Of a stretch of 64,000 nt of DNA, positions 3,015-34,645 are shown piece by piece. This stretch comes from a virus. Taxonomy: Duplodnaviria; Caudoviricetes. Under the pieces are notes generated by a model. The model was not told where the DNA came from and ran no database searches. It saw nothing but the letters and a program-made list of their open reading frames with translations. The translations under genes were made by a program, and so were the position numbers. Each line of letters starts with the position of its first letter. The stretch's first letter is position 1. Where the stretch lies: IMG/VR virus record IMGVR_UViG_3300028844_004840, positions 1-64,000 of that record. One strand, given 5' to 3'.

Positions 3015-4641
3015 GCGTAAAGAGTATCGCACCGCCCTATCTGAAATGACTGTACTACGTGACCGTGTAGAGGCACACATCGCTGGGCGCGAACCACTCG
3101 ATCCACGTGTCCTCGCCCTCACAGAACAGATGACGGGAACGTCGGACGTACGCAACCAATTACGCGCACTTGATGCTACCTATGATGATTTCAACACACA
3201 GTATGATGAAAAGCTACGCTATGCGTCCCAATTCCGTTTTTCACCGTTTTGTGAATACATGTTCCGCGATGAAGTACCGGCACAACACCATGAATTTTTG
3301 ATTGATCACATGGAAGCAATTTATCATGGAGACATAACGCGTCTAGCTATCTCCATGCCTCCCGGAGCAGCAAAAAGCTCTTACGCTTCACACCGTTTTG
3401 GCGCTTGGTATCTAGGACAGCGTCCGGATCACCGTTGGTTGCAGGGTGCGCACACGATGACCTTTGCCAAAGATCGCTTAGGTAAAGTTGTGCGCGGGAT
3501 GATGAGCGAAGATCGCTACAAAAACATATTTCCAGATGTACGCCTGAGCGCATCATCAAGCGCTGCGGACTATTTTGAATTTGCAGGCTACCGTGGGTAC
3601 TACAAAGCAGTCGGTGTCGGTACGGGCATTGCTGGGTATCGCTTTGAAATTGGGGCTATTGATGACCCTATCGCATCGCGCGCCGATGCAGAAAGCCCTA
3701 CATTCCGCAAGACATTGCATAGCTGGTTTGACGATGACTTTGGTACACGTCCATCCAATCCGGATGCGCCGATATTTGTTGTGAACACACGCTGGCACGA
3801 AGACGATCTAGTAGGGCATGAGCTACAGAAAATGGCAGAAGGACGCGGCGATGAATGGGTAATTCTGAACATCCCAGCACTGGCAGAAGAGGATGATATC
3901 CTAGGACGCCAAGTAGGAGAGGGCTTGTGGCCTGAGTTGTTTGGAACAGCCCACTATGAAAAACGAAAGATGACTTTGACGGGGCGTTCATGGAATTCCT
4001 TGTATCAAGGACACCCAACCGATGAAGACGGGGGTGTACTCAAACGTGAAGACGTTACCACATATTCGAAGCTTCCACGAAACGGTGTAGACTCTGACGG
4101 GAACGTTGCGGAGCAAGTTATAAAACGTGTTACACTATCTGTTGACTGTGCTGAAAAAGCGACAGAACGTTCTGACTACACGGCAGCGACTGTGTGGGTA
4201 GAGACTAATGAGAAAAAGCACTACCTAGTGCATGCGTCTCGTATCAAAAAAGAATTCACTGAAATGGTTCAGTGGATCGAAGAAATGGCAACTGCTACTT
4301 ACTGTGACACAAAAGTCTCACAAATTCTTGTGGAAGATCGTGGCGCAGGTACACAGTATATCCAAATTAGAAAGACCTCACCCGGACGCGTGCCTGTCAT
4401 TCCTATTGCAACTAAACAGCAGTCTAAAGCTTTCCGTTTCGACGGTGTCACACCAATGTTTGCCGCAGGACAGGCACTACTACCGGAGAAAGGCGTAAGC
4501 TGGATTGCAGACGTAGAGGCGGAGCTTTATGCCTTCCCTCAAGGCCGTAATGATGACTATGTGGACACCGTATCACAGTATCTAGCATACTCTCGTGAGA
4601 ACAATATTCAACGCGGAATGCGAAAATTAATTACCCACTAG
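2995..4641 (+). CDS. terL: terminase large subunit
   Basis: Walker A-like SMPPGAAKS, IDDP, TRWHEDDL, LYQG, nuclease SVD...DYTA and FP.G.NDDYVD. Confidence 0.96.
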   Translation: MLITQNERKEYRTALSEMTVLRDRVEAHIAGREPLDPRVLALTEQMTGTSDVRNQLRALDATYDDFNTQYDEKLRYASQFRFSPFCEYMFRDEVPAQHHEFLIDHMEAIYHGDITRLAISMPPGAAKSSYASHRFGAWYLGQRPDHRWLQGAHTMTFAKDRLGKVVRGMMSEDRYKNIFPDVRLSASSSAADYFEFAGYRGYYKAVGVGTGIAGYRFEIGAIDDPIASRADAESPTFRKTLHSWFDDDFGTRPSNPDAPIFVVNTRWHEDDLVGHELQKMAEGRGDEWVILNIPALAEEDDILGRQVGEGLWPELFGTAHYEKRKMTLTGRSWNSLYQGHPTDEDGGVLKREDVTTYSKLPRNGVDSDGNVAEQVIKRVTLSVDCAEKATERSDYTAATVWVETNEKKHYLVHASRIKKEFTEMVQWIEEMATATYCDTKVSQILVEDRGAGTQYIQIRKTSPGRVPVIPIATKQQSKAFRFDGVTPMFAAGQALLPEKGVSWIADVEAELYAFPQGRNDDYVDTVSQYLAYSRENNIQRGMRKLITH

Positions 4642-21487: not shown

Positions 21488-21529
21488 AATAATCCCTTGA
21501 CGCGTGTTAATACATAGCGTACAAGGGTA

Positions 21530-21850
21530 GTACGAAACACACGTATATCTTCAAGTTTGAAGACATTTAGGACCTCGGGGCAGTACCGAGCAGGTCCACC
21601 ACATATTCACTGGTAGTGAATATTTGAGGGGCCTGAAATAGGATCGACTAGGTGGATTAGAATAAGCGGCGTGTCGGGTTGGCCTAAACGTTATCTGGGC
21701 AATTGGTCTTAGGACTGAGGAAACAACTAAATGCAGCAAATGATAATGCAGCACCTACTGAAATGGCAATCGCAGCCTAAGCCTCTGGCTTAGATGCAAC
21801 CGCCGATCAGTTCGGGGGTCCGGTGGCACCTAGCAACAGAAGCCACCAAC
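21530..21850 (+). ncRNA. ssrA: circularly permuted (two-piece) tmRNA
   Basis: Acceptor piece ...CAGGTCCACCA ends 21601, intervening hairpin, coding piece GGGCCTGAAATAGGATCGAC starts 21629 (G3.U70); tag AANDNAAPTEMAIAA* at 21733-21780; outer ends approximate. Confidence 0.92.
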
Positions 21851-22048
21851 TAATTCTGTTGAGATAATTCTTGACACACCACTATTATGACGCGTAGTAT
21901 ACCACTACGTAGGGTGTCTGTCCCTAACTTGACAGAATGGTGGAGACAAATAAGCAATTACTTATTTCGTCCTTTCGATGACTTAGGTCAGATCGCATGC
22001 TGGGTACCCAAGTAAAAAGGCCCTTTTAAAAATATTTAGGAGGGTACG

Positions 22049-23582: not shown

Positions 23583-24533
23583 ATGACCGAGATTATGAGA
23601 ACAATTGCAGGTTCGCGCCTATACGGAACGAACAATGCGGATTCCGACACGGACTACAAAGCGGTTCACCTTCCAAGCTCTCGTGACATTCTTCTGCGCC
23701 CAAAGCGTCAGATGGTTCGCTCCACATCGAGTGGTGGAACCGAAACGAACGGCGCGGACGACGTAGACATGGAGAGCTTCGAATTACAGCGCTACCTGAA
23801 ATTGGCGAGCGACATGCAGACCATTCCGGTGGAGCTTCTGTTCGCTCCTACGCTGTCCAAATCATGGACGTGGGACCGCATCGTTGAGAACAAGAATCGC
23901 ATCCTGAACCGAAATACAAACGCCTTCGTGGGCTACTGTAAAGGACAGGCAGTGCGCTACTCGATGCGCGGCACACGCCTCAACACCTATATGGAAGTTG
24001 TGGCTGTACTGGGCCAATATGCGGGTACAGGAGAAAAGGCACAAACCATAAAGGACGAACTTATCGCTATTGAGGGTGTCAAAGTCATCCCCAAAGAAGA
24101 AGGGGGAGGCCCCATCGATTATCTGGACGTTTACGGACGCCAAACGCCAATGACGGTGCGCATTGGTGAAGCTCTAAAGATTTACCAGAAGCCTGTCAAT
24201 GAAGCAGGTAAACGAGCCAATAACGCACAACAAGCGAATGGCGCGGATTGGAAAGCCCTTTACCACGCGGTTCGAATTGCAGAGCAAGGCGTAGCGTTGT
24301 TCAAGACAGGGGTAATCAGTTTTCCTTCACAAAACGTGCCACTGCTGATGCGTATTCGAAATGGCGAAATGGACATGAACGAGGTCCTAGATTACTTCGA
24401 TGAACAGGCAGCAGAATTGCAAATGATCGGAGCTAATTCTCCTTTACCGGAGAAACCTGATTACGAGTGGATTGACGCATTCGTATGCCAAGTACATGCG
24501 AAAATCGTAAGAAAAAGTGGGTGGGGCGCATAG
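23583..24533 (+). CDS. Pol-beta superfamily nucleotidyltransferase (RlaP-like)
   Basis: GSRLYGT...DSDTDY, DWKALYHAVR, IRNGE, SPLPEKPD. Confidence 0.85.
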   Translation: MTEIMRTIAGSRLYGTNNADSDTDYKAVHLPSSRDILLRPKRQMVRSTSSGGTETNGADDVDMESFELQRYLKLASDMQTIPVELLFAPTLSKSWTWDRIVENKNRILNRNTNAFVGYCKGQAVRYSMRGTRLNTYMEVVAVLGQYAGTGEKAQTIKDELIAIEGVKVIPKEEGGGPIDYLDVYGRQTPMTVRIGEALKIYQKPVNEAGKRANNAQQANGADWKALYHAVRIAEQGVALFKTGVISFPSQNVPLLMRIRNGEMDMNEVLDYFDEQAAELQMIGANSPLPEKPDYEWIDAFVCQVHAKIVRKSGWGA

Positions 24534-28746: not shown

Positions 28747-29150
28747 ATGAAAGTACTTGTATGCGGCGGACGAGAATACGATAATTATGAGAATATATGC
28801 CGAACGCTCGATAAACTACACGAAGAACATCAATTCACAGTTGTGATACACGGCGACGCTGGAGCGTACAAGCAAGGCTACAGGGGGGTAGCCCTGTGGC
28901 GTACAAAGGCGCAGATGCGCTTGCCGGACGATGGGCAGAAGAACGGGGCATTCAGCAAGTAAAGATACCAGCCAATTGGTCGGGTAAGGATACTGCTGCA
29001 GGGATGCTACGAAACAAGTTCATGCTGGAATTCGCAGAACCACACCTGTGCGTCGGGTTTCCTGGCGGCGTGGGAACCAACGCGATGATGTACCTCGCGT
29101 TCAAATCAAAAGTACCCGTCATTGACACAGATGACGTAACGCATCCGTAG
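28747..29150 (+). pseudogene. SLOG/DUF2493-family gene split by a frameshift
   Basis: VLVCGGREY...VIHGDA in one frame; GADALA..WA...ANW...AAG..RN..ML...FPGG.GT in another; G6 run at the junction. Confidence 0.75.
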
Positions 29151-29217
29151 CTCAACTGGATAGAGCACTTGATTACGAATCAAGAGGTTGTGGGTTCGAA
29201 TCCTACCGGATGCACCA
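29141..29217 (+). tRNA. tRNA-Arg(ACG)
   Basis: Canonical cloverleaf, CCA. Confidence 0.95.
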
Positions 29218-29447
29218 ATAATGGAGACTGAACATGCTTTTTGTAACATGGATTGCCGCAAACACTGCCACAGTATGGGCGTGGGGCAAATGGACAGACA
29301 ATCGCAACGAAGATCCCGTCAGAGATTCATTTCTGGGCCTTGCTGCGATGATTGTCTTGAACCTAGTATTTTTAGGTATTTGGATTTTCTGACTTTTACG
29401 TGCTTGACATGCGCGTAGGGTAGAGGTAGGTTGAGTACATTGAATAC

Positions 29448-29523
29448 GGCGATGTAGCTCAACGGTTAGAGCAGGGGCCTCTAAAACCCTTGGTTGTGGG
29501 TTCAAATCCCACCAACGCCACCA
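29448..29523 (+). tRNA. amber suppressor tRNA(CTA)
   Basis: Standard register gives stem GGGGC/ACCCT and loop CT-CTA-AA; canonical D and T arms, CCA; upstream TTGACA promoter. Confidence 0.85.
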
Positions 29524-29532
29524 AGACAACAG

Positions 29533-29616
29533 AAGGAGACAAGCCATGAAGAGCTAGATCAGACCGCCACCCTGATCCTTAGATGAATTCACTTAATACG
29601 AAAGCAATCTAAGGAG
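29533..29616 (+). promoter_or_regulatory. leader mini-ORF with in-frame amber and RBS-sequestering hairpin
   Basis: AAGGAG-N7-ATG AAG AGC TAG ATC AGA CCG CCA CCC TGA (29546-29575); TCCTTAGAT (29576-84) pairs with ATCTAAGGA (29607-15). Confidence 0.75.
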
Positions 29617-29623
29617 ACATAAA

Positions 29624-29992
29624 ATGTCACATGAACTAAAGATCAAAGCAAAATCCCTCGCAGCCGAATCACAGATGATCCGTCAAGAGGAACTGAAACT
29701 CAAGCGCAGCGCACAGTGGAACCGAGAGCACCAGAACACCGTAGAAGCGGAAGAGTTCAACAGTATTCGACAGTCACTATACGAACATCGAACTTGGGAC
29801 GTACGCCGCGAATCACGCGCAACAAACATCGCCCGTGCATACATCACTGGTAAGCCGTATCACACAGTAGAACAAACCACACGCGCCAACGCGATGGAAA
29901 TGGGATACATGCAGGGTCGCGTACAGAAGTTGGTCAAGAAGTACGGTGAAGGAGCATCTGGCGAAGAAATCGCTGCATGGCTTGCAGAATGA
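29624..29992 (+). CDS. basic helical hypothetical protein downstream of the amber leader
   Basis: AAGGAG SD; ELKIKAKSLAAE...L.EHR..DVR.ESRAT.IA...G.PY. Confidence 0.85.
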   Translation: MSHELKIKAKSLAAESQMIRQEELKLKRSAQWNREHQNTVEAEEFNSIRQSLYEHRTWDVRRESRATNIARAYITGKPYHTVEQTTRANAMEMGYMQGRVQKLVKKYGEGASGEEIAAWLAE

Positions 29993-30240
29993 ATTGGATC
30001 GCGGTCACAGACCGCTTTCCACCCCACGGTGAAGTGGTTCTGGCTTGGTCCTCATGGGACGAGGCCACCGCCATCTACATGGACGGAACATGGTATCGTG
30101 CCGAAGAAGGTATGGTGATGCGTCGCGAAGTTTACAAACGATGCAGAATGGGATGTTGCGGCGAGTGGGAGAACGAAGACGTGGAAGTATGGCAAACACC
30201 GACACACTGGTGTGAAATTGTACCTCCGGACATAGAATAA
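29989..30240 (+). CDS. DUF551-like protein
   Basis: MNWIAVTDRFP...PTHW..I..P. Confidence 0.75.
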   Translation: MNWIAVTDRFPPHGEVVLAWSSWDEATAIYMDGTWYRAEEGMVMRREVYKRCRMGCCGEWENEDVEVWQTPTHWCEIVPPDIE

Positions 30241-30244
30241 GATT

Positions 30245-30319
30245 GCGGGTGTAGCTCAGTGGTAGAGCTTCTGATTTCCAATCAGAATGTCGTGAGTTCG
30301 AATCTCATCACCCGCTCCA
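30245..30319 (+). tRNA. tRNA-Gly(TCC)
   Basis: Canonical, U73, CCA. Confidence 0.94.
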
Positions 30320-30524
30320 AAAAGTAGCACGGGGAATCCTCTGACACGAAGATTGGTTTAACCAACTGGATCTGATGACTGTCATGAACCCGTGGGCTTG
30401 CGCAGTATGGTGTGGTGCCGAACTACGTCCTAGGAAGCCGCTGGTTATCTAATAGGTGCCAGTATAGGGAGACACGCTGATGAGGCATTTGGCACAGCTA
30501 CGGCGCTGCCGTAGTCTCCCGTAT

Positions 30525-34151: not shown

Positions 34152-34267
34152 CGTATATCGAATAACAGTAAGCATCAAATTTAAACTTAGATGAATCTAT
34201 TTTACATGTTTACATTACAGCCTCATCTCGTTATGAGTACTTTGTAACCCAAAAAAGGAGTGTGAAT

Positions 34268-34645
34268 ATGGCACCAATTTTATACATCTTAATGCGTACA
34301 GACCTTGCCTCCATGAATTCGGGCAAAGGGATGGCACAAGCCTGCCACGCCGCAAATCAGTTTGCGCACAAATACGCTGGGACGGATTTCCTAGAACAGT
34401 GGGAAGCCGAAACAGGAATGGGATTTGGAACTACAATTGTATTAGCCGTTGAAGATTGGTACGCACTAGCTTATTATACTTCTTATGCGGAAGATGTGGG
34501 TATACCAAGCGGGGTCACTCACGATCCGTCTTACCCGATTCGAGATGGAAAGGTAACGCACACAGTATCTTTAAGTACGTGTGGGTATATTTTCAGCGAA
34601 GACGGTCCTCTGGATATTCTGAGCAAACTAAATCTACACCCGTAA
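34268..34645 (+). CDS. peptidyl-tRNA hydrolase, PTH2-like
   Basis: YILMRTDL.SM..GK.MAQACHA...W...TIVL. Confidence 0.8.
   Translation: MAPILYILMRTDLASMNSGKGMAQACHAANQFAHKYAGTDFLEQWEAETGMGFGTTIVLAVEDWYALAYYTSYAEDVGIPSGVTHDPSYPIRDGKVTHTVSLSTCGYIFSEDGPLDILSKLNLHP

Follow-up and report, generated by a model that had tools for sequence, protein, structure and literature searches.

Several described systems resemble parts of the locus considered here, a cassette at positions 29448-29992 of a 64,000-nucleotide (nt) stretch of viral DNA (record IMGVR_UViG_3300028844_004840), which as a whole is called the window below. The cassette combines a tRNA gene with the anticodon CUA, a short leader open reading frame (ORF) interrupted by TAG, and a gene for a 122-amino-acid (aa) protein whose Shine-Dalgarno (SD) sequence lies in a hairpin. 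In the SecM, ApcA, ApdA, ApdP and RQH leaders, a ribosome stalled on an RxPP-like leader opens an SD-hiding stem-loop (PMC10987492, PMC12992588), which is their likeness to the cassette; these leaders lack an internal stop and are long, acting as secretory or membrane monitoring substrates. The prfB gene (PMC5009743) likewise has an early stop at which release-factor competition sets the output, and its +1 step at UGA recalls a TGAA version of the cassette; in prfB a host tRNA slips on the codon that precedes the stop, and RF2 itself is the product. PepNL of E. coli (PMC11890864) is a short leader in which tRNA read-through of a stop, in competition with RF2, affects the next gene. In stop-recoded phages (10.1101/2021.08.26.457843, PMC13037316) a phage suppressor tRNA conditions the expression of phage genes. 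Frameshift-suppressor tRNAs with expanded loops share an 8-nt loop, a four-base codon and a +1 outcome with some members of the cassette family, and the 2016 review that describes them (PMC5009743) notes odd-loop phage tRNAs, none of them known to mediate frameshifting.

The cassette is very likely a translational switch made of suppressor tRNA, leader and gene, for which we infer charging of the tRNA, read-through and stalling. At the level of sequence and model, the case is made by its anatomy, its conservation, the match of codon, anticodon and frame, the ON direction of read-through and the opening of the hairpin. By default, a ribosome on the leader would terminate at the early stop by means of a host release factor, and the hairpin would keep the ribosome-binding site (RBS) of the gene closed. 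If a charged cassette tRNA wins the A site, either by reading three bases (CUA) or with a net four-base +1 step (UUCA and UCUA), the ribosome would continue for a few codons, pause at Pro-Pro followed by a stop (PP-stop) or at RxPP, melt the left arm of the hairpin and free the RBS. The output would then follow charged suppressor tRNA against release-factor activity.

Table 1. Elements of the cassette, in window coordinates.
Feature	Position	Strand	Basis
Amber-suppressor tRNA, CUA, 7-nt loop, A73, encoded CCA	29448..29523	+	ARAGORN (anticodon CTA), Rfam alignment, anticodon same in relative
Leader SD, AAGGAG	29533..29538	+	Sequence
Leader ORF, M-K-S-TAG-I-R-P-P-P-TGA	29546..29575	+	Sequence; changes in relative synonymous or stop-to-stop; design kept in 133/165 loci
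Gating TAG, followed by A	29555..29557	+	Purine next in 103/109 TAG leaders
Putative pause/arrest element, R-P-P-P-stop	29561..29575	+	PP-stop or RxPP family-wide; stalling presumed
Hairpin over the SD of the gene (29611-29616; AAGGA), 9-bp outer stem 29576-29584/29607-29615	29576..29615	+	Fold, z -4.38
Gated gene, 122-aa basic all-helical protein, unnamed viral family	29624..29992	+	Homolog searches, structure prediction

The arrangement described in the initial annotation, a CUA tRNA, a 22-nt gap from its CCA to the leader ATG at 29546, an amber leader and a 9-bp stem over the SD, was recovered at every coordinate by sequence inspection, ARAGORN, Rfam and folding. The tRNA scores 66.8 bits against Rfam RF00005 with CUA centred in the 7-nt loop, and it agrees with the generic tRNA model: its D loop is normal and its variable loop has 5 nt. 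The label 'Pyl' given by ARAGORN derives from the anticodon; the body of tRNA-Pyl has short D and variable loops, and the suppressor is probably not a true tRNA-Pyl. The hairpin folds with -15.3 kcal/mol, a stability equalled by 1 of 200 shuffles.

Essentially one related haplotype, present over 29446-30075 in three other runs from three studies, provides a check on sequence error. It carries 66-67 differences, and anticodon, TAG and stem arms are untouched in the 40 difference rows shown, beyond which there are 37 more. Four changes fall in the leader, on either side of the TAG, and all are synonymous or stop-to-stop, a pattern that would be expected, in this one comparison, if selection acted on a peptide made by read-through of the TAG. 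In the tRNA, one change re-establishes pairing between 31 and 39 in the CUA register. The initial annotation had named an anticodon loop that is an error for Arg(TCT) as a way for its reading to fail. This did not materialise, and an assembly error was rejected because the haplotype from three studies keeps CUA and Rfam centres it.

The design is kept across the family. A phmmer search returned 1,397 representatives (50% identity) of the protein at E <=0.001, and tblastn returned 9 and 11 phage records, of which six were fetched; in the first four fetched phages a CUA-containing tRNA stands beside the gene together with a start-TAG-[IV]-x-[KR]-PP leader (4/4). Isolated phages with the cassette include DSS3_MAL1, BUCT-ZZ01, Summit, DLP3, DLP5, OLIVR1-3 and NCTB. 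The locus sample joined 53 loci with the best 80 from a set of 314 and the top 80 from one of 200, and is biased to close, TAG-type relatives; with the window included there were 218 sequences, 171 of them distinct in the 100 nt upstream and 165 with a start and 170 nt of flanking sequence. An automated rule asking for an SD, a start, a stop within 13 codons and PP 1-8 codons further in any frame was satisfied in 133 of these 165 loci, in overlapping classes (TAG frame 0, 107; TGA +1, 22; TAG +1, 2; TAA frame 0, 1; TGA +2, 3), and in 7 of 204 other ORFs that served as controls. With clusters formed by 60% single linkage, one of which contains 86 loci, 48 of 70 cluster representatives have a leader, against a mean of 1.33 and a maximum of 4 of 70 in 100 dinucleotide shuffles. 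The expectation that homologs would keep leader, stop, PP, hairpin and an adjacent suppressor was thus borne out. No chromosomal copy was found in GTDB with a narrow protein pattern, nor the gene beside any of 120 UUCA-pattern hits there, both being limited samples, and a single-protein scan of viral contigs gave no match.

Some leaders are longer or more elaborate. In nine loci (L060, L062, L064, L066, L068, L076, L078, L089, L094) a conserved domain of about 80 aa lies between the gating TAG and the PP-stop, and synthesis of this second protein would depend on read-through; the 81-aa insert has no Pfam or PHROG match under E 0.4. The leader of L024 contains TAGA twice and that of L065 TAG twice, and two gating codons in series would sharpen the response.

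Leader codon and anticodon change together. Among 167 classed loci, the leader codon matches the neighbouring anticodon in 148 of the 149 that show both, hand curation included. Frame-0 TAG leaders stand beside a CUA tRNA with a 7-nt loop (105 loci) or a CCUA tRNA with an 8-nt loop (9), or show no tRNA (10, each with less than 1 kb of upstream contig). TAGA +1 leaders accompany UCUA tRNAs (4), and TGAA +1 leaders accompany UUCA (28) or UUUA (1), with no tRNA seen in 2; in phage NCTB one of these two missing UUCA tRNAs sits 2.6 kb upstream. A single TAA frame-0 leader has a UUA tRNA of ambiguous register, and the remaining loci lack a leader (4) or are unclear (3). Within this set the combinations of a TAG leader with UUCA and of a TGA leader with CUA are both absent. 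Some of the TGAA leaders classed by hand finish in GP-stop or RSPT and not in PP. The initial view of the device as specific for amber and RF1 was too narrow, given the TGAA, TAGA and TAA versions. In a quickly computed tree of 112 proteins, which excludes L051, L056 and near-copies, the TGAA/UUCA state changes 13 times, at least 3 of these forced by well-supported branches.

Starting from the tRNA avoids the bias of a search that starts from the protein. Among 120 viral UUCA-loop hits, the gene lies within 3 kb in 49 of 54 with an 8-nt loop against 1 of 62 ordinary Glu(UUC) tRNAs, with 2 of 4 among register ties. The automatic rule found a TGAA +1 PP leader in 34 of 45 distinct UUCA 8-nt-loop loci, about 14 of which, judged by eye, were already in the locus set. 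Viral CUA tRNA hits have the gene nearby in 24 of 116 cases (20 of 82 where there was room), and the automatic rule gives a TAG leader in 19 of 23; most viral amber suppressors belong to other contexts. About 52 viral CUA tRNAs with flank (within L460-L575) show neither the gene nor a clear recoding signal in a crude ORF-density test. The tRNA-first search also brought up more divergent homologs (L548, L571, L543), whose leaders are shorter from TAG to PP and escaped the automatic rule. The acceptor ends are not conserved, the discriminator base of 60 CUA tRNAs being A in 37, G in 13, T in 9 and C in 1. Nine CCUA tRNAs with an 8-nt loop have C in place of U33 (L004, L101, L103, L116, L119, L125, L126, L202, L204); in OLIVR1 a CCUA-loop tRNA is labelled tRNA-Val, and the CUA tRNA of DLP3 is labelled tRNA-Glu.

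The frame of the proline motif follows the tRNA. It lies in +1 when the tRNA has a U-first 8-nt loop (UUCA, UCUA) and in frame 0 when the loop has 7 nt, and the base after TGA is A in 21 of 23 automatic TGA leaders, with the proline motif in +1. In L024 two TAGA steps are followed by RGPP, and in L052 the frame of the gene is reached solely via +1 at TGAA. In their sequence, these loci show a net +1 step matched to a four-base anticodon, which does not imply four simultaneous base pairs; most frameshift suppressors pair at most three bases at once, according to the 2016 review (PMC5009743). A sense-codon quadruplet version is possible in L051, one locus without a clear SD, where a tRNA (near 3290-3370) with a 9-nt loop and AAUG follows the gene and an ATG-CATT (2965-2996) would enter the gene frame by +1.

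The direction of control is indicated by loci in which the stop lies within the N-terminus of the gene itself. In L009, L016, L017, L044 and L048 M-T-TAG runs straight into the protein, and in L052 a TGAA inside the gene start is passed by +1; a further leader, in L032, ends on the ATG of the gene. Such in-frame fusions mean that read-through is ON, and the six loci with a stop inside the start of the gene bear out the proposal that read-through turns it on.

The sequence beyond the gating codon points to stalling. In 101 of 133 leaders a stop comes right after PP or one further proline later, and RxPP occurs in 24 of the 32 leaders in which a sense codon comes next, against 6 of the 101 that stop. 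We argue from this retention of Pro-stop or RxPP that stalling is under selection, and that ribosomes probably stall at these motifs. A pause at Pro-stop is said to have been described by Hayes in 2002. The EF-P-type stall on PPP proposed at the outset did not hold up: PPP is rare in the family and the constant feature is PP-stop or RxPP. A role in sensing EF-P was rejected since PPP is not conserved, and EF-P is probably not an input because RAPP and RGPP arrest is reported to be refractory to it (PMC12992588).

Opening of the hairpin by the advancing ribosome was modelled in ViennaRNA with the ribosome footprint blocked. As the ribosome shifts from the stop to the prolines, the cost of opening positions -16 to +3 falls from a median of 9.4 to 4.7 kcal/mol in the 48 representatives, dropping by more than 1 kcal/mol in 41 and rising in 1; a drop of more than 1 kcal/mol is found in 122 of 133 loci. 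For the window hairpin the values are 11.0 at the TAG and 4.8 kcal/mol at the prolines. With shuffled spacers the effect is lost (a change of 0.4 against 4.6 kcal/mol in 47 loci), and the hairpin is kept across the family as structure, not as sequence. The postulated opening of the RBS hairpin by a leader ribosome agrees with this halving of the modelled energy and its abolition by spacer shuffling.

The gated protein was predicted by AlphaFold2, with 148 sequences, to form a pair of long helices, residues 3-35 and 39-75, with a small cap that is also helical (predicted local distance difference test score 95.6). L5, L12, E15 and R65 are invariant, K8, H55, R56, E83 and W119 are kept at >=98%, and the median net charge is +11. 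Searches of Pfam, PHROGs, NCBIfam and PADLOC over 148 members gave no family name (at most 2 members per family) and no release factor family, and the query itself has no Pfam or NCBIfam match; PDB sequences gave 0 matches and the ESM Atlas no usable one. Foldseek found nothing in the PDB under E 0.001, the PDB and VIA yielding only generic hairpins and BFVD only uncharacterised phage proteins. The best structural Z values, 9.3-9.4, cover residues 1-78 only (root-mean-square deviation 1.1-1.9) and are tied among unrelated helical hairpins, which singles out no known fold family such as PspA/ESCRT-III or HEPN. Assignment to HEPN by its RxxxxH motif was rejected because the Arg preceding H55 is not conserved. 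Complex prediction with RF1_RUEPO scored 0.00, which is no evidence either way. One record names a homolog 'putative structural protein', a label for which the searched passages of PMC10132094 offer no basis. Since the protein surface is fixed across distant phages and tRNA bodies are variable, a conserved partner such as the ribosome is suggested.

The genome around the cassette uses the standard code. The whole record is a complete virus genome of 139,562 bp with terminal repeats, of which the window is bases 1-64000. TAG terminates 36 of 167 non-overlapping ORFs of at least 80 aa, in agreement with the earlier statement that the standard code applies elsewhere, and ORF coverage is 0.84 under the standard code, 0.87 with TAG open and 0.89 with TGA open. 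Long in-frame extensions beyond the stop follow TAG in 6 of 36, TAA in 8 of 84 and TGA in 4 of 47 cases. At none of the six TAG junctions does a PHROG family span the stop; four had matches, and matched families are confined to one side. Recoding according to genetic code 15 was rejected on these grounds: the CUA suppressor tRNA typical of such phages is present, and numerous genes with in-frame TAG or a rarity of TAG terminators are not seen. The only target of the suppressor found in the genome is one leader codon. Of 20 loose leader-like matches in a scan of the whole genome, the locus alone combines the top RBS score with PP(P)-stop. Searches of this genome and of five named relatives turned up no release factor gene, and there is no sigma-70 promoter match within 29100-30400. 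Among named homologs of the 122-aa protein, that of phage DSS3_MAL1 is the nearest (46%), and we infer an alphaproteobacterial host.

Several points weigh against the switch as proposed. Four loci have no leader, and two complete genomes contain the gene with neither a leader nor a match to two suppressor patterns. Most RAPP-like motifs taken out of context arrested inefficiently (PMC10987492), and the leaders here are very short. The modelled opening depends on an assumed footprint of -12 to +12 from the P site. In the matching, 37 leader and 18 tRNA classes were assigned by hand after reading automatic misses, codon and anticodon are mismatched in L029, and the class is unclear in L005, L051 and L053. 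Loop registers were assigned by scoring how well the stems pair, and in some loci (L001, L006, L047, L128 and L130) registers tie or an Arg(UCU)/Glu(UUC) register competes. Independent codon-switch pairs number 3 on well-supported branches, all in one direction (p 0.25), and 10 over all branches; three same-direction pairs cannot reach significance. The nine CCUA loci with 8-nt loops have frame-0 TAG leaders, so that loop size alone does not set the frame; their association with TAG-A in frame 0 is in line with a fourth-base mismatch. Finally, no fold or family match supports the proposed target of the protein. That there is no switch, but a mini-ORF that arose by chance next to a wrongly called Arg/Glu tRNA, or else a sensor of EF-P, is nevertheless very improbable: a few tRNAs have tied registers and the window leader has three prolines, but the related haplotype, shuffles, control ORFs, hairpin model, codon match and Glu-register control all speak against it, as does the rarity of PPP beside a constant PP.

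With regard to purpose, we tentatively favour a negative loop similar to that of prfB, in which the protein would act on the ribosome or on termination, would be made when termination falters and would keep read-through low. The gene itself seldom ends on the codon that its tRNA would suppress: TAG is its stop in 2 of 73 loci against 43 of 244 neighbours, and TGAA in 0 of 30 against 36 of 171 (Fisher p 0.0009 and 0.003, kinship uncorrected and neighbours taken from mechanical ORF calling; the cross-controls gave p 0.06 and 0.41). Neighbours in related loci use the suppressible stop at 18-21%. This free use by neighbours, the avoidance by the gene itself and the leaderless copies without a tRNA together favour a sensor or negative loop over its rivals. 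No neighbour family occurs in more than 6 of the clusters, which was counted for a negative or sensing role. On this guarded reading, the widespread viral cassette may use natural four-base decoding (UUCA/UGAA, UCUA/UAGA, perhaps AAUG/CAUU) or three-base stop suppression by a private tRNA as a built-in reference against host release factors, switching on a translation factor that acts on termination.

The same switch could drive a protein unrelated to termination, with the tRNA reporting the time of infection, the number of genome copies, the presence of co-infecting kin or tRNA survival against host nucleases. This is somewhat unlikely, as is its corollary that an effector is licensed only once the phage tRNA is mature and charged. 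Several private codon-anticodon keys exist, the cassette often lies within tRNA arrays, the window's genome encodes an integrase, which makes a life-cycle decision possible, and sensing of co-infecting phages by suppressor tRNAs has been proposed for recoded phages (10.1101/2021.08.26.457843); however, the keys are few and common to distant phages, many loci have no other tRNA in the fetched flank, and avoidance of the suppressed codon fits a role tied to high read-through. That avoidance would also suit positive feedback, in which the protein blocks release factors or aids charging to reach high read-through, as host sabotage or as a starter kit for code change, and the unconserved acceptor ends leave room for a dedicated helper. 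We consider it unlikely in view of the many ORFs ended by TAG, the free use of TAG and TGAA by neighbours and the lack of PHROG families across the TAG junctions; copies with neither leader nor detected suppressor in two complete genomes are hard to fit to a release-factor inhibitor. A relation like that of toxin and antitoxin, with a harmful stable suppressor tRNA and a protein that binds or cuts it and whose synthesis is tuned by tRNA activity, would explain a self-contained unit mobile across unrelated phages, and the charge of the protein and its invariant H55, R56, R65, E15 and E83 agree with it. It is quite unlikely, as tRNA bodies and anticodons are diverse whereas the protein surface is invariant, and most viral CUA tRNAs have no partner gene.

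ARAGORN detects 20 tRNAs and a two-piece transfer-messenger RNA (tmRNA) in the window. The tmRNA (21509-21871), an RlaP-family nucleotidyltransferase (23583-24533) and a PTH2 peptidyl-tRNA hydrolase (34262-34645) lie by the tRNA array and represent further ribosome-rescue and RNA-repair genes. A YspA/SLOG-family gene is seemingly split across two frames (28747-28962 and 28896-29150; overall 28747-29150).

If the switch is as proposed, the cassette would be a regulatory circuit with a self-encoded tRNA that reads a single private codon as its input. It would also supply natural +1-decoding tRNAs with a cognate codon and a built-in reporter, making natural four-base decoding directly testable. 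It would account for some of the suppressor tRNAs carried by phages with the standard code (24/116 CUA hits and nearly all sampled UUCA hits) and draws attention to an unstudied family, about 1,400 protein clusters in size, with a possible action on translation. Such cassettes might be a stepping stone to code change in phages and a source of evolved suppressor scaffolds for genetic-code expansion.

A full-text literature search, with most subscription journals outside its coverage, returned no report of such a cassette. In comparison with the SecM-type leaders, those of the cassette are mostly shorter than 20 codons, gated by a stop and dependent on a tRNA encoded alongside. A RAPP-like C-terminal motif is present (RPPP in the window, PP-stop in most family leaders), and the SD-hiding stem-loop opened by a ribosome is present as computed; a localisation signal or a downstream sec/yidC-type or transporter gene is not found, the leader having 9 codons and the downstream gene belonging to no known family. 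Unlike prfB, the cassette has a dedicated tRNA that matches the stop plus one base, and its product is no class I release factor. Where a near-cognate host Trp-tRNA prevents arrest at the final stop of PepNL, a cognate suppressor would be needed here to reach the arrest site, and in contrast to stop-recoded phages, which recode many structural and lysis genes, the genome retains TAG as a stop. Expanded-loop frameshift suppressors and quadruplet tRNAs are mutants or engineered; the cassette is a natural case in which the loop agrees with the codon and with the frame of the motif downstream. With its co-encoded tRNA key, and with codon, anticodon and frame changing together, the cassette fits no family tested, and its parts resemble SecM-type anti-SD control and prfB-type stop competition.
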